Origin: a virus
Strand: one strand, 5' to 3'
Length of the DNA: 64,000 nt
Virus record (IMG/VR): IMGVR_UViG_3300005529_000030
Span: 1-64,000 of that record
The notes beneath the pieces were generated by a model. It saw nothing but the letters and a program-made list of their open reading frames with translations, had not been told where the DNA came from and did not search any database. The number at the start of each line of letters is the position of its first letter. The first letter of the stretch is position 1. Both the position numbers and the translations under genes were made by a program. Shown here piece by piece: positions 10 through 44,082 of the stretch.

Positions 10-85
10 GGTGTGGATGATGTAACGGCAGCATGGCTCTCTGTGAAAGAGTCAGTGTAGGGTTCGATTCCCACTCTTCACCCCA
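10..85 (+). tRNA. tRNA-His(GTG)
   Basis: Cloverleaf, anticodon arm ctct-ctGTGaa-agag, GGTTCGATTCC T-arm, encoded CCA. Confidence 0.85.
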
Positions 86-96
86 AAAAAAAACTG

Positions 97-125
97 TTGA
101 CAAATTTTAAGAGTTGTTGTAGATT
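97..125 (+). promoter_or_regulatory. sigma70-like promoter
   Basis: TTGACA-17 nt-TAGATT. Confidence 0.55.
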
Positions 126-226
126 TTTTATCGAAGAGTTATGCTGGGCGTAGTCGAGGCTACAATTAAAAAAAAAACATGCCCGGTTTAAGCCCGCGCC
201 AGCGGGAAAAAACCCGAAAATAGTTC

Positions 227-256
227 TTGACAAGTTTTCGGGTTGCGTGGTAAAGT
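227..256 (+). promoter_or_regulatory. sigma70-like promoter
   Basis: TTGACA-18 nt-TAAAGT with TGn extended -10. Confidence 0.55.
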
Positions 257-569
257 AAAGCGCAGAGTGAGGGCCGTGAGGTTTTCTACTACTCCTTACC
301 TTCAACCCACGGCCCTCAAGGCTGAAAGGATAAAAAATTGAAAACGTATAAAATTACCTTGACTCAGAAGATAAAGATTGAAGCCGAGGCCGAAACCCCT
401 CAAGCCGCTTTGCAGCAAGCAAAATCTCAGGTTGAGGGCCGCAAGTTCGAGCCTGATAATTACAGCGTTAAGGAAGTTTAAGGCATGGCAGACCGTAAAC
501 AATTCGAGCACGTTCCAACGTCGGACTCGGAGTTGGTTCGCCTTTTGAAGGAAAAGAGTTAAGGGGCCA

Positions 570-800
570 ATGATGATTACGGAATCCGTAGCTGAGCTTG
601 ATTTTGAAGAACGTCAAGAAGCATCGGCGTTAGAGTCGGAAATCATGGATGACCCAGAGAGCGCGGCAGTAGCAATTGTTGCCCTTCGTAAGTACTGCCG
701 TCTTTTGGAAACGGGCCTTGGGGCACATGAGGCACGCGAAAGTGTTTGGGGAGGCCATGCGGAATTATATGGTGGAAGAAAGGCCCGAAGAAAGCTTTAA
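570..800 (+). CDS. hypothetical protein
   Basis: 76 aa ORF with upstream AAGGGG RBS. Confidence 0.55.
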   Translation: MMITESVAELDFEERQEASALESEIMDDPESAAVAIVALRKYCRLLETGLGAHEARESVWGGHAELYGGRKARRKL

Positions 801-870
801 GCAGTCGCCCGTATTCGGCTTGCTGCATGAAGCGGGCCATTCTAGATTCTCAGAAAGTCAAAGTTTCTGT

Positions 871-944
871 CCCTGTTTGGTGTAGTGGCCGCACCCCTGT
901 CTGAAGAACAGGTAGTCGTGGTTCGATTCCACGGATAGGGGCCA
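871..944 (+). tRNA. tRNA-Phe(GAA)
   Basis: cctgt-ctGAAga-acagg anticodon arm, TTCGATT loop, CCA. Confidence 0.85.
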
Positions 945-945
945 T

Positions 946-1032
946 GCTTTTGTGGTGGAACAGGCAGACGCGCCGCACTCAAAACGCGGTGGGCACAGTC
1001 CCGTGGGGGTTCGATTCCCTCCAAAGGCACCA
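946..1032 (+). tRNA. tRNA-Leu(CAA)
   Basis: ctCAAaa loop, long variable arm, CCA. Confidence 0.9.
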
Positions 1033-1038
1033 AATTTT

Positions 1039-1126
1039 GCGCTGCTGGCGGAACAGGCAGACGCAGGAGACTTAAAATCTTCGGCCTTAAAACGGCGTGG
1101 GAGTTCGATTCTCTCGCAGCGCACCA
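1039..1126 (+). tRNA. tRNA-Leu(TAA)
   Basis: ctTAAaa loop, long variable arm, CCA. Confidence 0.9.
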
Positions 1127-1147
1127 ATTCGATTATCAAGAGGCAAT

Positions 1148-1333
1148 ATGCCGCATTACAATATACCCAGGCAAATGAGGTCGGGTAAGTTGCCCGAATC
1201 GGACAGGCACACTTTAACTCCGAAGTATTTATTGGGCCATGAAAATAGATTTGACCCAAATGTTTTTACGCCGGAGCAGATGATTCAGAAAGGAATTTTG
1301 CGCGGTAAGCCCGCTCCTGTACAGCAAATTTAA
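1148..1333 (+). CDS. small hypothetical protein
   Basis: ATG at 1148 after AAGAGG RBS, fills gap between tRNAs. Confidence 0.45.
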   Translation: MPHYNIPRQMRSGKLPESDRHTLTPKYLLGHENRFDPNVFTPEQMIQKGILRGKPAPVQQI

Positions 1334-1337
1334 GTTT

Positions 1338-1426
1338 ACTCGATAGCGGCGGTCCGCAGCACGCTCTTATAAAGCGTCGGGGCAGATTACCCTTGCTGGA
1401 AGGTTCGATTCCTTCATCGAGTACCA
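1338..1426 (+). tRNA. atypical tRNA, anticodon TAT (Ile), long variable arm
   Basis: Acceptor ACTCGAT/ATCGAGT, acgct-ctTATaa-agcgt, gaagg-TTCGATT-ccttc, ACCA; 4-nt D-loop; ~20-nt variable region. Confidence 0.8.
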
Positions 1427-1477
1427 ATTTTGTGTGATAGAAGGAACAAACGGAGAGTTGTTCCCAACAAAATTTTT

Positions 1478-1552
1478 AGTCCGCAGGTGTTATGACGGCA
1501 TTACTCCCTCTTAAGGAGATAGGTGACGGTTTGAATCCGTCGCGGACTACCA
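1478..1552 (+). tRNA. tRNA-Lys(CTT)
   Basis: ctcc-ctCTTaa-ggag, AGTCCGC/GCGGACT acceptor, T-loop TTTGAAT variant, CCA. Confidence 0.8.
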
Positions 1553-1558
1553 ATTTTT

Positions 1559-1638
1559 CGCCTTGTAGCTCAATTGGTAAGAGCACACGCCTTTTAAGCG
1601 TCGGGGTTGGAAGTATCCAAATCTTCCCAGGGCGACCA
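1559..1638 (+). tRNA. tRNA-Lys(TTT), enlarged T-loop
   Basis: TAGCTCAATTGGT D-arm, ctTTTaa loop, T-arm ggaag-TATCCAAAT-cttcc, CCA. Confidence 0.75.
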
Positions 1639-1709
1639 AATTTTAAGCGCGAGCCGTTATATTCCGAATGGAACTTTGGTTTATAAAATTTACGTAAAGC
1701 AAGTTTAAT

Positions 1710-1801
1710 GGAGAGGTTGGGGCAACAGGTCGCCCTACCGGGCTGTAACCCCCGGCATCCCAATGTGGATACTGTAGGTTCGAATCCTGCCTTCTCCACC
1801 A
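1710..1801 (+). tRNA. tRNA-Tyr(GTA)
   Basis: ctGTAac loop, long variable arm, GGTTCGAATCC, CCA. Confidence 0.85.
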
Positions 1802-1856
1802 ATTTGTTTCGCAGTCATTTTTAAAAAGTCCCCTTTACAAAAGGGCTGAGGGAAAC

Positions 1857-2171
1857 ATGTTAAATGCTAAAATAGCGTGGGATTGGACCGCATCCGACCC
1901 GCAAATTGTTTTTGACCATTTTGAAGTTTGGGATGCGGATTTGTCAAATAATGTTGTAGGAACAGCGCCGAGACCTGACGGAGCGGACGTAAAAACTACT
2001 CCTACCGATGCCGCGCCGTTGGTTCTTCAATACGCGAACCCAGGCGGTAAGGCGGTCGCTATTTATGCGGTTGATAATCTGGCTCAGAAATCAAGTCCGG
2101 TGTTTTTGACTTTTACGCTGACACAGCCAGTCCCAAACCCTGTAACCAACGCCCGTTTCCTTGGCCAGTAA
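1857..2171 (+). CDS. small FN3/Ig-like beta-sandwich protein (possible virion decoration)
   Basis: W-x-W-T-A-S...F-E-V-W...A-V-D-N-x-x-Q-K-S-S-P pattern typical of fibronectin type III; GAGGG RBS. Confidence 0.6.
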   Translation: MLNAKIAWDWTASDPQIVFDHFEVWDADLSNNVVGTAPRPDGADVKTTPTDAAPLVLQYANPGGKAVAIYAVDNLAQKSSPVFLTFTLTQPVPNPVTNARFLGQ

Positions 2172-2300
2172 TATTCTGGCGTTGGGTTTGCTTGATTAAA
2201 TATTTTTTGAGAAAGTTAGTGTGCAGACCGCGCAGCGCCCGTTGAGAGGAAGTCGTTCAATTAGTCCGAGGCGTAAAAAGTATCGGCTTGAATTTTTCGT

Positions 2301-2374
2301 ACTCCGCTGATGTAGTGGTAGCATGGATGCCTGATTAGCGTCTCGTCAAGGTTCGAGTCCTTGGTGGAGTACCA
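2301..2374 (+). tRNA. tRNA-Ile(GAT)
   Basis: gatgc-ctGATta-gcgtc, GGTTCGAGTCC, CCA. Confidence 0.85.
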
Positions 2375-2483
2375 AGTTTGGGATTACACTCAGGAATACA
2401 AACGGGCGTATTCTTGTGTTAGGTGTGGAGAGTCCGAATCTTGTTGTTTGGGACTCAAGCTTATTATAGAGGAGATTCATTTT

Positions 2484-2559
2484 GGGCGAGTAGCTCATTC
2501 AGGAGAGCGCCGCACTTGCAATGCGGAGGCGGCAGGGGCAGAGCCTGTTTCGTCCACCA
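2484..2559 (+). tRNA. tRNA-Ala(TGC), non-canonical T-loop
   Basis: ccgca-ctTGCaa-tgcgg, G3:U70 pair, T-loop GGCAGAG, CCA. Confidence 0.8.
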
Positions 2560-2560
2560 T

Positions 2561-2636
2561 ACGCTGTTAGCAAACTGGTAGTATGCGCTGGTCCTACAAA
2601 CCAGAAGGAATGGTTCGATTCCATTACGGCGTACCA
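2561..2636 (+). tRNA. tRNA-Val(TAC), C33 variant
   Basis: ctggt-ccTACaa-accag, TTCGATT, CCA. Confidence 0.75.
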
Positions 2637-2638
2637 AA

Positions 2639-2713
2639 AGGCTGTTCGTTTAGAGGAAAAGACAGCGGACTACGAATCCGCAGACGCGGGTCCGACTCCC
2701 GCACGGCCTTCCA
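2639..2713 (+). tRNA. tRNA-Arg(ACG)
   Basis: gcgga-ctACGaa-tccgc, T-loop TCCGACT, CCA. Confidence 0.8.
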
Positions 2714-2720
2714 ATTTTTA

Positions 2721-2795
2721 GGACTGTTAGGCTAACGGATAAACCAATGCGCTTCGAACGCATAATTAAGGGTTCAAATCCCTTGCGGTCCTCCA
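2721..2795 (+). tRNA. tRNA-Arg(TCG)
   Basis: atgcg-ctTCGaa-cgcat, TTCAAAT, CCA. Confidence 0.85.
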
Positions 2796-2899
2796 ATAGT
2801 TATAATGCAGCAGTGCAGAGAAATAGCAAGTGCCGTAGTTATGAGATACTTCTTCTAGTGTGAAAAAAGACTTATAACGCTTGTTGCCTTGCTTTTTAT

Positions 2900-2976
2900 T
2901 CCAGTCTGGTCCAATTTGGCAGGACGCTTGGCTGTTAACCATGAAGGTCTGGGTTCGAGTCCCAGGGCTGGAGCCA
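2900..2976 (+). tRNA. tRNA-Asn(GTT)
   Basis: ctGTTaa loop, TCC/GGA-GCCA ends typical of Asn. Confidence 0.85.
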
Positions 2977-3009
2977 AATTTTGAAATTTTTAAAGTGTCG
3001 TAAAATAAT

Positions 3010-3084
3010 GCACGATTAGTTTAATTGGTAGAATGGCCGTTTTGTAAACGGCGGGAGTTGGTTCAAATCCAACATTGTGCTCCA
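3010..3084 (+). tRNA. tRNA-Thr(TGT)
   Basis: gccgt-ttTGTaa-acggc, CCA. Confidence 0.85.
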
Positions 3085-3096
3085 ATTTTTAAGTTT

Positions 3097-3170
3097 GCTT
3101 TGTTGGTCTAGTGGCATGACAGCGGTTTCGTAAACCGCGAGCCGTGGTTCGATTCCACGACGAAGCTCCA
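3097..3170 (+). tRNA. tRNA-Thr(CGT)
   Basis: gcggt-ttCGTaa-accgc, CCA. Confidence 0.85.
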
Positions 3171-3189
3171 AAAATCGCTAAGTTTTTAG

Positions 3190-3218
3190 TTGACAAAATA
3201 AAAGTTTCATGGTACGCT
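3190..3218 (+). promoter_or_regulatory. sigma70-like promoter internal to tRNA array
   Basis: TTGACA-17 nt-TACGCT with TGn; -10 overlaps start of next tRNA. Confidence 0.45.
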
Positions 3219-3289
3219 TTGTTAGTTCAATGGTAGAACGCGCCCTTGGTAAGGGTGAAGTGAAAGTTCGATTCTTTCACGAAGCTCCA
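3216..3289 (+). tRNA. tRNA-Thr(GGT)
   Basis: cgccc-ttGGTaa-gggtg, CCA. Confidence 0.85.
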
Positions 3290-3291
3290 AC

Positions 3292-3366
3292 GGTGCTAGG
3301 GTCAGTTGGTAACGACACGGCCCTGTCACGGCTGAAGTCTGGGTTCGATTCCCAGTAGCACCGCCA
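3292..3366 (+). tRNA. tRNA-Asp(GTC)
   Basis: cggcc-ctGTCac-ggctg, GCCA end. Confidence 0.85.
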
Positions 3367-3367
3367 A

Positions 3368-3441
3368 GGCCCTGTCGTCTAAAGGCAGGACATTAGATTC
3401 TCAATCTAAGAACAGCGGGTCAGTACCGCTCAGGGTCACCA
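3368..3441 (+). tRNA. tRNA-Glu(CTC), non-canonical T-loop
   Basis: ttaga-ttCTCaa-tctaa, T-arm agcgg-GTCAGTA-ccgct, CCA. Confidence 0.8.
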
Positions 3442-3451
3442 ATTGGATAAT

Positions 3452-3526
3452 GGCGAAGTCGTCTAATGGCCAGGACATCAGCCTTTCAAGCTGAGAACGA
3501 GGGTTCGACTCCCTTCTACGCCTCCA
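3452..3526 (+). tRNA. tRNA-Glu(TTC)
   Basis: tcagc-ctTTCaa-gctga, CCA. Confidence 0.85.
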
Positions 3527-3530
3527 TTTT

Positions 3531-3617
3531 GCGTCTGTGGATGGAATTGGGCAGACACGCCAGTCTTAGAAACTGGTGCCTTCGGGCGTACAGGTTCGAG
3601 TCCTGTCAGGCGCACCA
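3531..3617 (+). tRNA. tRNA-Leu(TAG)
   Basis: ccagt-ctTAGaa-actgg, variable arm gccTTCGggc, CCA. Confidence 0.9.
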
Positions 3618-3629
3618 AATTTATGATTT

Positions 3630-3704
3630 CGTTCGGAAGCTAATCGGCTAGGCGGCGTTCTCATAAAGCGTGCATGGTTGGTTCGATTCCAACCCGAACG
3701 ACCA
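3630..3704 (+). tRNA. tRNA with CAT anticodon (Met or Ile2)
   Basis: ctCATaa loop, CGTTCGG/CCGAACG acceptor, CCA. Confidence 0.8.
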
Positions 3705-3709
3705 ATTGA

Positions 3710-3792
3710 AGCGGGGATGTGCTCCGGGTGCACACAAGACTCATAACCTTGTGGCTTGTCCAAAGTGGGTTCGATTCCCTCCCCCGCAACCA
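3710..3792 (+). tRNA. tRNA-Met(CAT), initiator-like acceptor, extended variable region
   Basis: GCGGGG/CCCCGC with 1:72 mismatch as in fMet tRNAs; ctCATaa loop; variable tgg-cttgt-cca. Confidence 0.7.
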
Positions 3793-3798
3793 ATTTTA

Positions 3799-3872
3799 GC
3801 GAAGTTAGTTTAGTGGCAGAACAAAACCTTGCCAAGGTTTGAGTACGATTTCGATTATCGTACTTCGCTCCA
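3799..3872 (+). tRNA. tRNA-Gly(GCC)
   Basis: aaacc-ttGCCaa-ggttt, GCG/CGC-TCCA. Confidence 0.85.
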
Positions 3873-3919
3873 TTTTTGTAGTATATGAGTATTCATTAGA
3901 TTTAACCGTGAGGTCTCTG

Positions 3920-4273
3920 ATGAGTCGTTCATATAGAAAGCCGTATGCTAGTTTTGTTTGCGGCTCCAATAGTGCTCGTTGGGATAAAACACAAGCAGCG
4001 AGAGCCGTTCGTCGCACTCAAAACCAAGCCATTAAGAAAGTTTTATCGAGTGGCGATTGGGACGAGTTTTTGATTCCCGACAGGTATGAGTGCAGTCATA
4101 ACGATGTTTGGGATTGGAGCCGCGATGGAAAGCAAGTTTACATGGCCAAGGATTCACAGTATAATAATCCTTTTGCTTATGTGAATTATGGGGATTTTGA
4201 GTTCGCTGTAAACTGTATGTTGGAAAGACAGAAACATACCGACAATTGGATTGCTAGGCTTTCAAGAAAATAA
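3920..4273 (+). CDS. hypothetical basic phage protein (MSRSYRKP...)
   Basis: ATG 3920 after GAGGT RBS; 117 aa. Confidence 0.65.
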   Translation: MSRSYRKPYASFVCGSNSARWDKTQAARAVRRTQNQAIKKVLSSGDWDEFLIPDRYECSHNDVWDWSRDGKQVYMAKDSQYNNPFAYVNYGDFEFAVNCMLERQKHTDNWIARLSRK

Positions 4274-4385
4274 TTTTTCGAGTCGCCAATCGCTGACTTT
4301 GTTACAATGTCGTCGAACGCTGACTTTCTACGTCGCTATTTTTTGTCTGGAAAAGGAACGTGCCGACAAGAAAATAATTTTTCGA

Positions 4386-4460
4386 GCGGGCGTGGTATAA
4401 AGGTTGTGCCTCAGCCTTCCAAGCTGAAGAAGACGGGTTCGAGTCCCGCCGACCGCTCCA
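4386..4460 (+). tRNA. tRNA-Gly(TCC)
   Basis: tcagc-ctTCCaa-gctga, TCCA. Confidence 0.9.
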
Positions 4461-4470
4461 AGTTTAACGC

Positions 4471-4546
4471 GAGTCATAGGTGTTAGTGGCAGCATATCGG
4501 TCTCCAAAACCGTAGGGTGGGGGTTCAAGTCCCTCATGTCTCGCCA
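4471..4546 (+). tRNA. tRNA-Trp(CCA)
   Basis: cggt-ctCCAaa-accg, GCCA. Confidence 0.85.
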
Positions 4547-4558
4547 AAAAGTTTTTAA

Positions 4559-4633
4559 GGCTCTGTCGTTCAACGGACAGGACCGCTGACTTCTAATCAG
4601 CGTATGCGAGTTCGATTCTCGCCGGGGCCTCCA
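4559..4633 (+). tRNA. tRNA-Arg(TCT)
   Basis: gctga-ctTCTaa-tcagc, CCA. Confidence 0.85.
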
Positions 4634-4709
4634 CGATTTGTCGTTTAATCGGATAAGACAGAAGTTTCCTAAACTTCTTATGCGGGTTCGAGTCCCGCCG
4701 AGTCGTCCA
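4634..4709 (+). tRNA. tRNA-Arg(CCT)
   Basis: gaagt-ttCCTaa-acttc; abuts previous tRNA with no spacer. Confidence 0.85.
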
Positions 4710-4725
4710 AAATCGAGGCACAAAT

Positions 4726-5067
4726 ATGAGGCCGTTAAAAGTAATGCTTTGTGCTCTCGTGTCTATCGTGAGTTATATATTAGGTGGTTTATTAAACGTT
4801 GCCGCCATATCGGCAAACAACGGTATGATGCCCGTTTATGTAGGAAAATTGACGAATCAAGAAATTTTTCTTGACAATGAGCACGTTTCAATGGCAACAT
4901 ACAGTCATTTGAAGATTTTATGTGACTATATTTCAATCGGAGATACGATAGCAAGTCCCGGAGACGTTTTATTGGTTTTAGGATTCTTGGGACTGATTGT
5001 TTCTTTTCTTGTGGCTACATATCTTATTGGAAAAGCCGTAAAGAATAAATTGAATTTGGTGAACTAG
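4726..5067 (+). CDS. DUF5317-like membrane protein
   Basis: Hydrophobic helices; N-x-G-x-MPV and L-x-D...S-P-G-D motifs. Confidence 0.65.
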   Translation: MRPLKVMLCALVSIVSYILGGLLNVAAISANNGMMPVYVGKLTNQEIFLDNEHVSMATYSHLKILCDYISIGDTIASPGDVLLVLGFLGLIVSFLVATYLIGKAVKNKLNLVN

Positions 5068-5384
5068 GCTATCGCGGAACGGTGGCTCCCTCAAACCGTA
5101 AGGTGTCGTCAAGGCGTACCTTGAGCATCGTATTACAGGGGGCGAAATTCCGAGGAAGTTCAGGACACATCTCAACATCAGACCGTGGAAGTTGCGGGCC
5201 GAGTAATTGGACGGGTAAGCCTCGATATTCTAATTATTGGCGGATAGTTAGAATCATTGGAGTCGAGAAACTCCCTCTGAGTGCAATGCCAAATAGGGCG
5301 GGAGTGAGTTGAGCACGCAGAACGCCGGGTAGGCAGCTTAGATGGATGATGGCCGTTATACAGAATCCTGGCTATTGTTCACCA
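5057..5384 (+). ncRNA. rnpB: RNase P RNA (bacterial type A-like), phage-encoded
   Basis: P1 ggtgaac/gttcacc; CR-I GAGGAAGTTCAGG; GTGCAA..CCAAATAGG; CCGGGTAGGCAGCTT; AGATGGATGAT; CR-V ACAGAATCCTGGCTA. Confidence 0.85.
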
Positions 5385-5392
5385 CATTATAC

Positions 5393-5479
5393 GGAGTGCT
5401 GGCGAAATTGGTAGCCGCACTTGTTTGCTAAACAAGCGACCGAAAGGTTGTGGAGGTTCAAATCCTTCGCACTCCGCCA
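5393..5479 (+). tRNA. tRNA-Ser(GCT)
   Basis: cttgt-ttGCTaa-acaag, long variable arm, GCCA. Confidence 0.9.
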
Positions 5480-5484
5480 ATTTT

Positions 5485-5570
5485 AGAGGGTAGCGGGAGA
5501 TGGTTCCCAACTAGTCTTGAAAACTAGGCTAACCGAAAGGTTAATCGTTCGACTCGGTTATCCTCTGCCA
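5485..5570 (+). tRNA. tRNA-Ser(TGA)
   Basis: ctagt-ctTGAaa-actag, long variable arm, GCCA. Confidence 0.85.
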
Positions 5571-5576
5571 TTTTAT

Positions 5577-5625
5577 AGTGTCACATATTTTACCATAAGC
5601 GTTTTACAGTGAAATATGTGACACT
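5577..5625. repeat. 14-bp perfect inverted repeat
   Basis: AGTGTCACATATTT-21 nt-AAATATGTGACACT between tRNA-Ser and tRNA-Cys. Confidence 0.8.
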
Positions 5626-5628
5626 TAA

Positions 5629-5704
5629 GCACGAGTAGCCAAGTGGCAAGGCATTCGTCTGCAAAACGAATATACGAAGGGTTCGATTCCCTCCTTGTGC
5701 TCCA
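5629..5704 (+). tRNA. tRNA-Cys(GCA)
   Basis: ttcgt-ctGCAaa-acgaa, U73 (TCCA). Confidence 0.9.
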
Positions 5705-5706
5705 AT

Positions 5707-5781
5707 TGCTTTGTCGAATAATTGGCAATTCGCAAGTCTTTGAAACTTGTTATTCAGGTTCGAGTCCTGACGAAGCAACCA
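5707..5781 (+). tRNA. tRNA-Gln(TTG)
   Basis: caagt-ctTTGaa-acttg, CCA. Confidence 0.85.
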
Positions 5782-5797
5782 AATTTTGAAATTTTAT

Positions 5798-5872
5798 TGC
5801 GATGTCATTCAATTGGTAGGATGCTAGTCTCTGAAACTAGTCATCTTGGTTCGAGTCCAAGCGCCGCAACCA
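5798..5872 (+). tRNA. tRNA-Gln(CTG)
   Basis: ctagt-ctCTGaa-actag, CCA. Confidence 0.85.
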
Positions 5873-5890
5873 TATTTGAGTTTTAAGCAG

Positions 5891-6097
5891 ATGAACATAT
5901 CAAAACAAGCATCAATGGGAAAGTATCTTTCTCATGGCGAGGATTTTCTTCATTTGATAAATAGGAATGGAGAAATACTTTTCTCAATTGATGGAAAAGG
6001 CACAGTACACACTCCAAGAATTACGTTTTTTGACGGAACTACTCAAATATCGGCGGCTGCCATAACCGAAACTTCAATTGATGCGGGTACTTTTTAA
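5891..6097 (+). CDS. small virion/fibre-associated protein
   Basis: ITFFDGTTQISAA and IDAGTF fibre-type motifs; stop overlaps next start. Confidence 0.5.
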   Translation: MNISKQASMGKYLSHGEDFLHLINRNGEILFSIDGKGTVHTPRITFFDGTTQISAAAITETSIDAGTF

Positions 6098-6618
6098 TGA
6101 GTCTTAATGTATCTATTCAGCTTTATCGAGGAACGAAATCTAGTTTGTCAACTTTGCCGTCCACGGGTTTTGCGGGTGTACTTGCGTGGACAACAGACAC
6201 TAATGAAATTTATGTTGATACTGGAAGCGGAACTGGAATACCTGCCGCTTGGTCTAGATTAGCCAATGATGTAAAAGTTTTTACGGCAGCCGACCAAACA
6301 TCTAGGTTGGCGCTAACTGGTGTTCTTATCGGAGATTTGTGTTTACAAGCCGATAACAATCGTACATACATTTTAACTGACGAGCCAGCGTCGAATAATG
6401 TAAATTGGACAGCCATAGGAGTTACATCGGGAACGACTATTCAGGGTTTATCGGCACCTGTAACTCATCAGTTTGTGACATATATTGATAATAACGGTGT
6501 TCAGCATTTAGCACAACCTTCATTTGCTGATATTTCAGGCTTACTCGCTCAAACTCAATTACCGACTTCGATTGGAGCAGGCTCAAGCCTAACGAATATA
6601 GATTGCGGTAGCTTCTAA
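6097..6618 (+). CDS. tail fibre-like protein with Mtd/hyaluronidase N-terminal-type domain
   Basis: IQLYRGT...G-x-LAWTTDTNEIYV; C-terminal IDCGSF. Confidence 0.65.
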   Translation: MSLNVSIQLYRGTKSSLSTLPSTGFAGVLAWTTDTNEIYVDTGSGTGIPAAWSRLANDVKVFTAADQTSRLALTGVLIGDLCLQADNNRTYILTDEPASNNVNWTAIGVTSGTTIQGLSAPVTHQFVTYIDNNGVQHLAQPSFADISGLLAQTQLPTSIGAGSSLTNIDCGSF

Positions 6619-6908
6619 TGGCTAGAAATGTAGGTATTCAAGTTTTGCGCGGCATTAAAGCAAATATGCCCATATTGCAAACGGGAGAGTTGTATTTTGC
6701 AACAGATGAAGCTCAGCTTTATGTCGGAACTTCGTCTGGAAATCAGTTAGTTTTGTTGCATCAGTTGGGTGTAGGTAATGGGGGTATTCAGACAGTACGT
6801 GCTCCTCAGAAAGGAACTGGCGACGGGCCGTCTAATCCACGCGATATAGTTGGTTTTTTGAAAATAGTTTTGTCGGGAACTACATATTGGGTTCCTTTAA
6901 TGCAATAA
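6618..6908 (+). CDS. small fibre-like protein with Mtd N-terminal-type domain
   Basis: IQVLRG...GELYFATDEAQLYVG; coupled TAATG junction. Confidence 0.65.
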   Translation: MARNVGIQVLRGIKANMPILQTGELYFATDEAQLYVGTSSGNQLVLLHQLGVGNGGIQTVRAPQKGTGDGPSNPRDIVGFLKIVLSGTTYWVPLMQ

Positions 6909-6911
6909 TTT

Positions 6912-6999
6912 CGAGTCATAGGCGGGTAAATGGAAGCCCTCTGGTTTTGGAAACCAGTGCCTAACGGCCTTGCAGGTTCGAGTCCTGCTGATTCGACCA
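6912..6999 (+). tRNA. tRNA-Pro(TGG) with extended variable arm
   Basis: ctggt-ttTGGaa-accag; variable gcc-taac-ggc; C1:G72, A73. Confidence 0.8.
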
Positions 7000-7008
7000 A
7001 TTTTTAAT

Positions 7009-7087
7009 CGAGAATTAGAGAAGCCTGGTTGTTCTCGCCTGCTTCGGAAGCAGGAGGTCCAAGGTTCAAATCCTTGATTCTCGACCA
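7009..7087 (+). tRNA. tRNA-Pro(CGG)
   Basis: cctgc-ttCGGaa-gcagg, CCA. Confidence 0.85.
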
Positions 7088-7094
7088 ATTTCTG

Positions 7095-7128
7095 ACCCCG
7101 CTGTTTCAAACGGCGGGGTTTTGTATTT
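7095..7128 (+). terminator. rho-independent terminator closing the tRNA array
   Basis: ACCCCGCTGTT-TCA-AACGGCGGGGT followed by TTTGTATTT. Confidence 0.75.
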
Positions 7129-12465: not shown

Positions 12466-13071
12466 ATGGAAAAGACTGTAGCTTTCATAGTTCGTCATGG
12501 GTCAACCCGTCTTAACGATGAAAACAAATACAGAGGCCAATTGGATGTTCCATTAGACGAACGTGGAAAAAGAGAAGCTAAGGAAGTTGCAGAGTTTCTG
12601 AAAAATCAACCAATAGGACAAGCTTGGACTAGTGATTTAAGACGGGCAAAAGATACGGCAAAAGAAATTCTAAAGGGCCGAGGTTTAAAAGCTATTCCTA
12701 CGGAAAAATTGCGACCTTTGGATTCGGGAAAATTTGCGGGAAAGAGCAAAGACGAATATAAAGAACAGATGGAATATTATCACGAACATCCAGAAGAGAA
12801 AATTCCCGGCGGCGAATCTATTAATGGGGCCAATAATAGGATGAGAAAACCTCTTCTTAAAGCATTTCGCGCGGGATTAAGAGGAAAGCCTAGTCTTGTT
12901 TCGGCACATGCTAGTGTGATACACAGCGCGGGGCACTTGTTGCATAATAACCACAAAGCGGCTTTGGTGAAACCTGGAGGAGCCGTAAAAGTTATTTATG
13001 ATGGAGAGAAATTTAAAGCTCGCCCCATATTTAAAGCTAAGATGGAAGATGAGAAACATTATGCATCTTAA
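12466..13071 (+). CDS. histidine phosphatase (phosphoglycerate mutase family)
   Basis: VRHG, SDLRRA, PGGES, SAH motifs. Confidence 0.85.
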   Translation: MEKTVAFIVRHGSTRLNDENKYRGQLDVPLDERGKREAKEVAEFLKNQPIGQAWTSDLRRAKDTAKEILKGRGLKAIPTEKLRPLDSGKFAGKSKDEYKEQMEYYHEHPEEKIPGGESINGANNRMRKPLLKAFRAGLRGKPSLVSAHASVIHSAGHLLHNNHKAALVKPGGAVKVIYDGEKFKARPIFKAKMEDEKHYAS

Positions 13072-42339: not shown

Positions 42340-42670
42340 TGCTCTTCAACCGTTGCGTTTGATTCTTCTTGTTTTTTCATTTTTCTTTCTTTTACGATTC
42401 TCAAAATTTTTTACGAAGCTGCCGTGTTTGCATAAGTACGATTCCGGGCACAGTGGACGAGTCAGTTAATTTACGAACCATAAAATCTTTGCAATCGCAG
42501 AAATATCTAGCAAAAAGATGGCCTACGCGAGTCACAATGTGAACTTCCGTAGGGTCGGATTCGGACGACACGTAAAAAATTTTACAAAAACCGTCTCCAT
42601 TTTGTTTTTTAGGCACAGTTAGTTTGATACTCCCAGGGCAAACCCTGGGATTCTGTTTGCCTAGTTGCAT
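42340..42670 (-). pseudogene. SWIM zinc-finger gene, 5' end displaced by IS and internally frameshifted
   Basis: CDCKDF in one frame, LCKH in another; native ATG lies at the other IS flank. Confidence 0.55.
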
Positions 42671-43725
42671 TGCTGCACCTCGGTTCCCAGAAACGGGACT
42701 ACCAATAGGCCCGAATCGGAGCGCACTGAGTCTCCGACTACTCCACCGATAGGCATCGCGCGTCCTGCGACGTTAAATGCCGCGTTAGCGTCTCGGTGGT
42801 CATTGTGTCCGCAATGTCCACAACGATATGACTTACCGTTGGGCTTGGTTAACTGATGGCATCGGGAGCACTCCTGCGATGTATACGCAGAATCTACTTC
42901 CAGCACCATTACCCCGCGCAAAGCGGCTTTGTAGAGAATGAATTGAAGCAACTGATAGAAAGACCACTGAGACGACTCGCTATAACGGCGAATCTTCCCC
43001 TTCCTGACGTTCTCCAATTTCTCTACGTTAATGCACCGACGATGTTTCGCGGCGTAGTCCACAATCTGCTTGGACACGACATGATTTTCGTACTTCGTGC
43101 GTCTTGATTGCTTATTACGAATCTCGTGAAGAAGACGCTTCTTCCCAAGACCCTGCAAATTTGCTTTCCGCCCCCTCCAGACTTCTTTTGTCTTTGCTGG
43201 GTTGAAACCAAGATGCAAAACTTTCCCGCTTTGTGGGTCTGCCAACGTTGCGACAGCACCAACCGAGTTACGGTCAACGCCCACTGTTCCCGTGCACACG
43301 AACTGCTTATCCGCTTTTGCGTTGTAGCAAACTGCTGCGTACCACCCGCCTTTGCGCATAAAAAATTCTGCACTACGGATGAATCCTACAGGCAGTCGCA
43401 ACCATATAACGGGCAGAATTTCTTTTTTGAATAGTGCAGGGATTCTCAACCCGCCTGCTTCCAACTTAATCTGCCTGCCTTTGTCTCCGGAGATAGGCAA
43501 CACGAGGTTGGTTACCGATTTGCATTTCTTATTTCTTTGGTACTTCGCAATCAGACTCTTGCTGATTGCGCTCGGTATCTCGTGATAATATTTACTAGAG
43601 GACTGGTCGCGATGAGCGAGCATTCTATCAACGCAGGCACGAGCCTTGGGTACCAAGGAATCAAGTACGGGACGAAGAAAATCGGGGCACTTGATTTTGA
43701 TACAGCAAGTCACTGTGTCTACCAT
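42661..43725 (-). CDS. tnpB: TnpB RNA-guided endonuclease (start MVDTV likely; frame open to 43983)
   Basis: RuvC-I GVDRN, RuvC-II VEKL, YTSQECSRC, CGHCG, RuvC-III DANAAFN. Confidence 0.9.
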   Translation of the reverse strand: MVDTVTCCIKIKCPDFLRPVLDSLVPKARACVDRMLAHRDQSSSKYYHEIPSAISKSLIAKYQRNKKCKSVTNLVLPISGDKGRQIKLEAGGLRIPALFKKEILPVIWLRLPVGFIRSAEFFMRKGGWYAAVCYNAKADKQFVCTGTVGVDRNSVGAVATLADPQSGKVLHLGFNPAKTKEVWRGRKANLQGLGKKRLLHEIRNKQSRRTKYENHVVSKQIVDYAAKHRRCINVEKLENVRKGKIRRYSESSQWSFYQLLQFILYKAALRGVMVLEVDSAYTSQECSRCHQLTKPNGKSYRCGHCGHNDHRDANAAFNVAGRAMPIGGVVGDSVRSDSGLLVVPFLGTEVQQCN

Positions 43726-44082
43726 CTTTGTGTGCGCGTCGTCTTTTGCACGAAGTTCCGCAGGAAGCTTCTTGCCGACCTTCCGTTTATTCGTGAGATG
43801 CTTACTGGCGTTGTTGATAGCATCGGCTGTGCGGTTGTTGAGTTTGGTGGCGATGCCGACCACATCCACTTTCTTCTCCGCTACCCTCCCACGGCTAACT
43901 TGAGCGCAGTTGTTGGCACTCTCAAAAGTAAGAGTGCTTCCGCCTATCTCAGCCGATTTGGTTCCTTCTATTGGGGTCGTCATGCTCGTACTCTTTGGTC
44001 TAGCGGTTTCTTCCTTTGCTCCGTAGGTGGAGCGACGTTAGAAATTCTCAAAACGTATGTCAGTCAACAAGGACGCGGCTAA
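43612..44082 (+). CDS. tnpA: IS200 Y1 HUH transposase (start uncertain)
   Basis: HCVY..VFCTKFRR, DHIH, LWS.GFF..SVG, catalytic Y in KTYVSQQ. Confidence 0.9.
   Translation: MSEHSINAGTSLGYQGIKYGTKKIGALDFDTASHCVYHLCVRVVFCTKFRRKLLADLPFIREMLTGVVDSIGCAVVEFGGDADHIHFLLRYPPTANLSAVVGTLKSKSASAYLSRFGSFYWGRHARTLWSSGFFLCSVGGATLEILKTYVSQQGRG

Follow-up and report, generated by a model that had tools for sequence, protein, structure and literature searches.

Few ribozymes are common to all cellular life, and ribonuclease P (RNase P) RNA is among them. Here, we describe a full-length homologue of the bacterial type-A form of this RNA that is carried by a soil phage. It is found at positions 5057-5384 (+) of a 64,000-nucleotide (nt) window, the first 64 kb of the 72,596-bp IMG/VR virus record IMGVR_UViG_3300005529_000030, which is estimated to be 70% complete. 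The closest described systems are the type-A RNAs of bacteria, for example M1 RNA of E. coli and the RNA of Thermotoga maritima, the reduced RNAs of several cellular lineages, and the translation-related RNAs that phages carry, among them tRNA arrays and transfer-messenger RNA (tmRNA). The RNA described here follows the same logic as the latter, since it occupies a “slot” in a tRNA array, but by kind it is a tRNA-processing ribozyme and not a substrate.

The background is taken from three papers (the review PMC4919922; PMC8172020, by Lui, Nielsen and Arkin, 2021; and PMC8457005). The active site of RNase P RNA and its catalytic metal ions are housed in helix P4, the GGU of loop L15 pairs with the 3′ RCCA of tRNA, and the catalytic domain alone can cleave pre-tRNA, with or without the protein subunit RnpA (PMC4919922). 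Conserved regions CR-II and CR-III are described as universally conserved and as contacting the D- and T-loops of tRNA (PMC4919922).

Several cellular RNAs depart from this architecture. The RNase P RNAs of candidate phyla radiation (CPR) bacteria were, like the phage RNA, missed at default thresholds and needed manual refolding; many are without P13 and P14 and some without P18, as in the phage RNAs (PMC8172020). The CCA-binding motif is, however, absent in 23 of 35 CPR RNAs, many of which also lack P16/P17 (PMC8172020), whereas in the phage family the GGU is present in 35 of 35 distinct sequences and P16/P17 and P6 are kept. The CPR genes are also cellular and chromosomal, unlike the phage gene; the two groups are set apart by description only. 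Archaeal type-A RNAs, type A minus P13/P14 and P18, have the helix set of the phage RNA, but they require at least four protein partners and most show no activity by themselves (PMC4919922). Large parts of the specificity (S) domain are naturally lost in the RNAs of Mycoplasma fermentans and of Pyrobaculum (type P), which lack P12 or nearly the whole S-domain (PMC8172020, PMC4919922), whereas the phage RNAs keep P7-P12.

The phage RNA was matched best, and from end to end, by the bacterial type-A model. In a permissive search of 501 nt (4950-5450), RF00010 matched 5056-5389 (+) with 78 bits (E 5e-24) over model positions 1-367, and a search of the whole record gave this one match (E 1.7e-25). 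The first-pass annotation had proposed an RNase P RNA on a phage; the match, the record's origin in IMG/VR, and its genes for a large terminase, a portal protein, and a helicase agree with that proposal, and the ends that it proposed, 5057 and 5384, coincide with the outermost pair of P1 in our map. Of the two bacterial models that it had named for checking, RF00010 was thus significant, and type B (RF00011) was rejected, as it matched none of the five phage records searched. RF00010 also outscored the archaeal model RF00373 in all five (78 versus 37 bits for the window). For comparison, RF00010 gives 318.6 bits for rnpB of E. coli K-12. The curated gathering score of RF00010 is 100 bits (the RF00373 cut-off is 84 bits), and a default Rfam scan of the window listed 27 tRNAs and no RNase P RNA because 78 bits fall below that cut-off.

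The features shared by bacterial type A and the phage RNA are P1-P12, P15-P17, the P4 and P6 pseudoknots, the bulged U of P4, the GCAA of J5/15, the GGU of L15, J18/2, and CR-V. The phage RNAs differ from bacterial type A in having no P13/P14, no P18 (33 of 35), and no S-domain junction blocks, in three swapped P4 pairs, in their length of 260-384 nt versus 377 nt in E. coli, and in lying inside a phage tRNA array with no rnpA beside them. Since it departs from type A in three tested features, the curated score, CR-II/III with P13/P14, and P18, the gene is best described as a type-A variant that is phage-borne and reduced.

The RNA belongs to a family. A CR-I probe (14 specified bases) was unspecific, matching at least 119 stretches, and one relative (L105) was among the matches listed. 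A search with the terminase identified a syntenic relative, G003, with 59% terminase identity, the same tRNA order, and an RNase P RNA scoring 89.4 bits on RF00010, so the RNA is retained between phages that are only this similar. It was present in one of five terminase-relative records, the other four being 7-36% complete fragments that are uninformative on absence. A P8-P9 probe (22 specified bases) matched 14 viral contigs, 35 metagenome contigs, and one contig among 185,579 one-per-species genomes, and all 36 new loci from this search contained the RNA. Full-length RF00010 matches were obtained in all 11 of the further viral records searched, with scores of 72.7-104 bits, three of which exceed the cut-off (102-104 bits); other relatives scored 79.6 (G001), 95 (L152), and 92.5 bits (L194). 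An independent probe from the 3′ side of the S-domain recovered seven contigs, six known and one new (L194). L194 keeps the P8 stem, with one L8 base changed and GCAA in L9, which means that the family is wider than the P8-P9 probe. The collection comprises 50 copies and 35 distinct sequences, plus L194, found later. The M. fermentans RNA measures 276 nt; if this figure is right, phage members of 260, 264, and 266 nt are shorter.

Every copy is embedded in a tRNA array of a phage-like contig and has the orientation of the tRNAs; in 35 of 35 loci, this held for each tRNA within 4 kb. The downstream tRNA starts at most 10 nt away in 19 of the 33 loci where it is visible, and the upstream tRNA ends at most 10 nt away in 9 of 30. 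Downstream of the RNA stands tRNA-Lys in 16 loci and tRNA-Ser in 12, which are the two main positions of the RNA in the arrays; another tRNA follows in five loci, and none is visible in two. Comparison of 4700-5800 with 50,697 GenBank phage records by blastn gave six matches, all at two tRNA-Ser genes (query 700-889) and none to the RNase P part. The single contig from the genome collection, L152 (CABMCB010000038.1, “uncultured archaeon isolate LFW-28”), is 36.7 kb long and has 19 tRNAs in 8 kb beside the RNA; it is probably a mis-binned phage contig with an array in the same style. In L162, the tRNA that lies 2 nt upstream of the RNase P RNA is labelled “tRNA-Pyl” (CUA anticodon) by ARAGORN and may be an amber suppressor.

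The structure of the RNA is under selection. A full type-A structure of 74 pairs, including the P4 and P6 pseudoknots, was written by hand and counted on alignments of 16 and 35 sequences. Standard pairs filled 95.7% and 93.1% of the cells, respectively. When the partners were slid by 1-3 columns, the values dropped to 31.7-38.3% and 33.0-39.7%; the shuffle means were 78.8% and 75.3%, and none of 500 shuffles reached the observed pairing in either alignment. Changes on both sides were seen in 45 of 74 pairs with 16 sequences and in 52 of 74 with 35. Because the sequences are related, the shuffle control overstates significance, and the slid control, together with the many pair types, is the stronger argument. 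RNAalifold, run on 14 sequences, recovered P2, P3, P7-P12, and P15-P17, with compensatory changes in 33 of 55 pairs. A 2-bp “P15a” helix that it also proposed was rejected, as it clashes with the covarying P5. The elements of the RNA are as follows (pairing percentages refer to the 35 sequences).

5057-5384 (+): whole RNase P-like RNA, from outer pair to outer pair of P1; hand helix map checked against the family structure
5057-5064 (+): P1 5′ strand, pairs with 5377-5384; 8 bp, matched by 0 of 100 shuffles; 59.2% paired in the alignment, 5 of 7 pairs changed on both sides
5067-5074 (+): P2 5′ strand, pairs with 5347-5354; 100% paired, 6 of 8 pairs changed on both sides
5075-5152 (+): P3, with a basal stem (5075-5079 with 5148-5152) whose pairs covary and a 68-nt insert (5080-5147); the model has 14 nt
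5152-5165 (+): CR-I and P4 5′ strand, P4 being 5157-5165 with bulged U5160; equivalent to E. coli G61-G74, ungapped
5166-5168 (+): P5 5′ strand, pairs with 5281-5283; 100% paired, 3 of 3 pairs changed on both sides
5171-5176 (+): P6 pseudoknot 5′ strand (J5/7), pairs with loop 17 at 5308-5313; 98.3% paired, 5 of 5 changed on both sides
5178-5182 (+): P7 5′ strand, pairs with 5276-5280; 87.4% paired, 5 of 5 covary
5183-5197 (+): P8 hairpin, 5 bp and a 5-nt loop; identical in 35 of 35 (probe block), 100% paired, 0 of 5 pairs changed, the invariance being uninformative
5199-5210 (+): P9 hairpin with a GUAA (GNRA) loop; 100% paired, 2 of 4 pairs covary, GTAA in 35 of 35 (part of the probe)
5213-5273 (+): reduced specificity-domain arm, with P10 (5213-5216/5270-5273), P11 (5221-5226/5262-5267), and P12 hairpin (5227-5254); helices 10-13 of the map 91.9-98.5% paired, P11 and P12 covary
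5255-5261 (+): 7-nt bulge CATTGGA between P12 and the P11 3′ strand, in place of J12/13, P13, P14, and J14/11
5283-5286 (+): J5/15 GCAA, with A5285 equivalent to E. coli A248; GCAA in 33 of 35, TCAA in 2 of 35
5287-5335 (+): P15-P16-P17 arm, with P15 (5287-5290/5332-5335), P16 (5297-5300/5323-5326), and P17 (5304-5306/5314-5316); helices 14-16 of the map 92.8-97.1% paired and covarying
5291-5296 and 5327-5331 (+): P15-P16 internal loop, AAATAG and GGGTA, with G5328/G5329 equivalent to E. coli G292/G293; CGGGT in 35 of 35
5336-5339 (+): P18 site, 4 nt without a helix; 0 nt versus 24 in the model
5340-5348 (+): J18/2 (CR-IV region), AGATGGATG; equivalent to E. coli A328-G336 with A333 replaced by G; pattern AGA-N-G-R-ATG in 35 of 35
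5360-5373 (+): CR-V, ACAGAA (5360-5365) followed by the P4 3′ strand (5366-5373); ACAGAA kept across the family

The low alignment score of P1 is due to mis-registration of the 3′ ends by MAFFT: when each sequence was examined individually, a P1 of 7-10 bp was found in all 35 members, and no more than 2 of 100 shuffles did equally well.

The residues of the catalytic core were compared with those of E. coli by transferring the numbering through RF00010; both alignments are ungapped through CR-I, J5/15, L15, J18/2, and CR-V. The window RNA keeps G61-A66 (5152-5157), including A65 and A66, the bulged U69 (5160), G246-C247-A248-A249 (5283-5286), A254-G260 (5291-5297), C290-A295 including G292/G293 (5326-5331), and A347-A352 (5360-5365), and the family keeps GAGGAA in CR-I and ACAGAA in CR-V. 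The CGGGT present throughout the family, which holds the GGU of L15, is equivalent to E. coli G291-U294, and the CCA with which the GGU pairs is encoded at the end of all 32 phage tRNA genes.

The P4 strings quoted in the first-pass annotation, GAAGTTCAGG at 5155-5164 and CCTGGCT at 5367-5373, were found and pair as P4 with the bulged U5160. Its claim of a conserved catalytic domain with compensatory changes in P4 was borne out: relative to E. coli, A67-U359 became G-C, C71-G356 became A-U, and G74-C353 became A-U, i.e., three pairs are swapped on both sides, while G68-C358 became the wobble pair U-G. Across the 35 sequences, P4 (5157-5165 with 5366-5373) is 99.6% paired and five of its eight pairs covary; in three members of the family, the bacterial form AAAGTC is retained.

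The specificity domain is strongly remodelled. The conserved S-domain blocks (consensus ACAGAAAacAgA and GUGAAAa) and P13/P14 align to gaps in RF00010 (window, L152, and L194), in line with the earlier remark that CR-II/III could not be easily recognised. On the 5′ side of the arm, P11 continues directly into P12, and the 3′ side carries the 7-nt bulge, which reads CATTCGA in 13 of the 35 sequences, CATTCAA in 12, CATTGGA in 6, and has other forms in 4. The bulge begins with C-A-T-T in 31 of 35 sequences, and in 33 of 35 its final five bases match T-N-N-R-A; the latter pattern resembles the T-loop motif, from which the usual receptor for the tRNA elbow is built. The P18 site measures at most 3 nt in 33 of 35 members and holds a hairpin in only two (L121 and L182); an L18-P8 contact is named in PMC8457005. 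An extra hairpin between P2 and P4 was present in 18 of 35 members, 15 of these 18 having a GNRA loop; the window RNA is without it.

The 68-nt insert in P3 is a module consisting of a closing stem, a covarying GNRA hairpin, and an invariant hairpin. It occurs, nearly invariant, in 3 of the 35 RNase P RNAs (window 5080-5147, L182, and L162), of which L182 and L162 are otherwise divergent, and a free-standing copy was seen in an intergenic spacer of a viral contig (L188, 3842-3912), where 5,014 bases gave no Rfam match at E ≤ 0.001. The module may be a mobile RNA element.

The genomic surroundings of the RNA are made up of tRNA genes, as listed below.

11-7087 (+): tRNA array housing the RNA; 32 tRNA genes called by ARAGORN, all on the + strand
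5385-5392 (+): 8-nt spacer separating the RNA from tRNA-Ser(GCU), whose first base in the ARAGORN call is 5393
7094-7120 (+): strong terminator-like hairpin right after the last tRNA, 12 pairs followed by a T run; found by consensus scan only

The spacing of the tRNA genes is tight, with 11 of 31 spacers at most 7 nt long, 16 of 31 at most 12 nt, and one of 0 nt, which joins two tRNA-Arg genes (4559-4709). At 4633/4634 and ten further junctions, where the spacers are 0-7 nt, the CCA end of the preceding tRNA serves as the 5′ leader of the next. A cut by RNase P at the 5′ end of tRNA-Ser would also set the 3′ end of the RNA itself. Cleavage in cis of the tRNA 8 nt downstream was considered and judged unlikely, since engineered cis-cleaving constructs need a longer tether.

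On the other side, the gap between tRNA-Arg(CCU) and the RNA is 346 nt and holds a gene for a DUF5317 membrane protein (4726-5067, E 2.3e-10, over the Pfam cut-off), which overlaps the RNase P RNA by 11 nt, its stop codon lying inside P1. The nearest DUF5317 protein clusters are mostly viral. In the syntenic relative G003, the same slot contains an unrelated open reading frame (ORF) of 164 amino acids (L127, 1004-1498), which points to a variable cargo site inside the tRNA array. Two further small ORFs between tRNA genes, 6097-6618 and 6618-6908, gave weak matches to Mtd_N (major tropism determinant N-terminal; E 0.005 and 9e-6), both slightly under the Pfam cut-off. Two of the tRNA calls are unusual. 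A tRNA-Ile(UAU) call at 1338-1426, which recurs in L121, L144, L145, and L146, is long (89-91 nt), with the anticodon at 30-32, and the window copy is absent from the Rfam tRNA list at the gathering score. The other, labelled “tRNA-???” by ARAGORN (1710-1801), is 92 nt long, has a four-base anticodon (gtaa), and ends in CCA like the others. Elsewhere in the window, a transposase-like gene of 440 amino acids (42661-43983, −; phrog_506, E 6e-30) is located at the switch in gene orientation and GC skew at about 42 kb, and a histidine phosphatase superfamily gene (12466-13071; His_Phos_1, E 5.6e-34) lies directly upstream of the terminase.

The protein subunit was searched for in six frames with PF00825. 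No match at E ≤ 1 was obtained in the 72,596-bp record, in keeping with the first-pass annotation, which had seen no rnpA in the window, nor in four related records; one of the five is 95% complete, and the search did not extend to the protein-only forms of RNase P (HARP, PRORP). The same search gave matches in 10 of 14 known genomes used as a control. RnpA proteins are interchangeable between bacterial species (PMC4919922); the borrowing of host RnpA, put forward in the first-pass annotation, is plausible.

Taken together, we consider it probable that 5057-5384 is a functional phage-borne RNase P RNA of bacterial type-A descent, which would use host RnpA to mature the tRNAs of the phage. The RNA would be transcribed with the tRNA array and released by the same cuts that free the tRNAs. 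Its catalytic part would adopt the normal fold, with P1-P6, P15-P17, the bulged U of P4, the J5/15 adenosines, J18/2, and the L15 GGU engaged with 3′-CCA, whereas the specificity domain would be cut down to P7-P12, with the conserved 7-nt bulge replacing the junctions and P13/P14. The RNA would bind RnpA of the host, since none was found in the phage, and cleave the 5′ leaders of the 32 or more pre-tRNAs of the phage. With spacers that are often 0-12 nt, one RNase P cut would nearly finish two tRNA ends, and RNase P capacity would therefore limit, or govern, the rate at which usable tRNA is obtained from the array. The remodelled S-domain may be merely tolerated, given that loss of P13, P14, and P18 is called “not uncommon” (PMC8172020), or it may be a new way of holding tandem tRNAs.

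Several observations weigh against this reading. The window copy scores below the Rfam curated cut-off (78 versus 100 bits), and its minimum-energy fold, computed from this one sequence, does not stand out (z = −1.23, with 10 of 100 shuffles folding equally well), so the support comes from homology and covariation and not from thermodynamics. Three nearly invariant bacterial P4 bases are altered, though compensated, and at the position of E. coli A333 the window copy has G, as do 9 of 35 members. CR-II, CR-III, P13/P14, and P18 are all absent, so tRNA binding could be weak or different. Most members were fished with one exact probe, and the invariance of P8/L9 (35 of 35) is partly built in. 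The phage records are fragments or near-complete at best (7-95%), so that an rnpA gene may have been missed, and the proposed use of host RnpA presupposes a compatible protein in the host.

An active RNase P RNA with changed substrate recognition, in which the bulge reads the tRNA elbow anew and the enzyme is tuned to tandem tRNAs or to non-tRNA targets, appears rather unlikely. It overlaps the explanation given above, the sole difference being the role of the S-domain. In its favour, both canonical S-domain blocks are deleted and a family-specific bulge is conserved in their place, and at the 11 of 31 junctions with spacers of at most 7 nt the leader is the acceptor end of the previous tRNA, while RnpA normally holds leader positions −4 to −7 (PMC4919922). 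However, the sequence names no other substrate, the T-loop reading of the bulge is our inference, and P13, P14, and P18 are lost in bacteria as well (PMC8172020). The atypical phage tRNAs that the first-pass annotation had offered as a reason for such tuning found no support either: the tRNAs look ordinary, with 27 of the 32 ARAGORN tRNAs passing the Rfam tRNA cut-off and all 32 ending in CCA.

We give little credence to the idea that the RNA is a decoy that soaks up host RnpA or pre-tRNAs without cutting and so stops host tRNA maturation. The lack of rnpA matches in all five records would suit a decoy, as would the preservation of the regions adjoining P4, J18/2, and P2/P3, presumably those contacted by RnpA. 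Yet a decoy has no need of the L15 GGU (35 of 35), the J5/15 GCAA (33 of 35), the P6 pseudoknot, all 5 pairs of which covary, or the bulged U of P4, and a blocked RNase P would stop the 32 tRNAs of the phage too.

A functionless, decaying piece of host rnpB, acquired with the tRNA genes, is very unlikely. The score under the curated cut-off, the large deletions relative to the model, and the apparently foreign 68-nt module in P3 are what a relic might show, but the fold is kept in 35 distinct sequences with compensatory changes in 52 of 74 pairs, the RNA is retained in phages with 59% terminase identity, and the exact probe block occurs in only one of 185,579 species genomes, on a phage-like contig.

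An archaeal-type RNA of an archaeal virus, working with archaeal proteins, is scarcely credible: the same helices are missing as in archaeal type A, the lone genome-collection match is titled “uncultured archaeon”, and RF00373 matched weakly in four of five records, but RF00010 scored higher in all five, RF00373 never reached its cut-off of 84 bits and also matched bacterial control genomes, the “archaeon” contig has a 19-tRNA array of the same style and is probably mis-binned, and the CCA of all 32 tRNA genes and the L15 GGU form a pairing tied to the bacterial-type interaction (PMC4919922).

A virus-encoded RNase P RNA was not found in searches of the CC-licensed PMC and bioRxiv literature, though supplements and Rfam hit tables could hold one unnoticed; the papers on P finder and Bcheck contain no mention of phage, virus, or plasmid. 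Such genes escape detection at default Rfam thresholds: the window copy and the majority of related copies reach 73-99 bits, short of the cut-off of 100.

If the RNA is active, tRNA 5′ maturation joins the steps of translation that are brought along by phages, and 32 tRNA genes with spacers down to 0 nt offer a reason for bringing it. The family would provide 35 or more natural, covarying, and very short type-A ribozymes without the “universal” CR-II/CR-III, in effect a natural experiment on the minimum specificity domain required and on alternative ways of reading the tRNA elbow. Tentatively, the proposal may be taken further: viruses can own RNase P, in that a lineage of soil phages of ~100 kb could long have kept a minimal type-A ribozyme (down to 260 nt), with the elbow reader CR-II/CR-III/P13/P14 replaced by a 7-nt T-loop-like bulge, which would capture host RnpA and give priority to the phage's own near-spacerless tRNA array. 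We regard this extended version as possible but doubtful. If it is true, the tRNA supply of the phage could continue when host RNase P is limiting or when defence nucleases attack host tRNAs.

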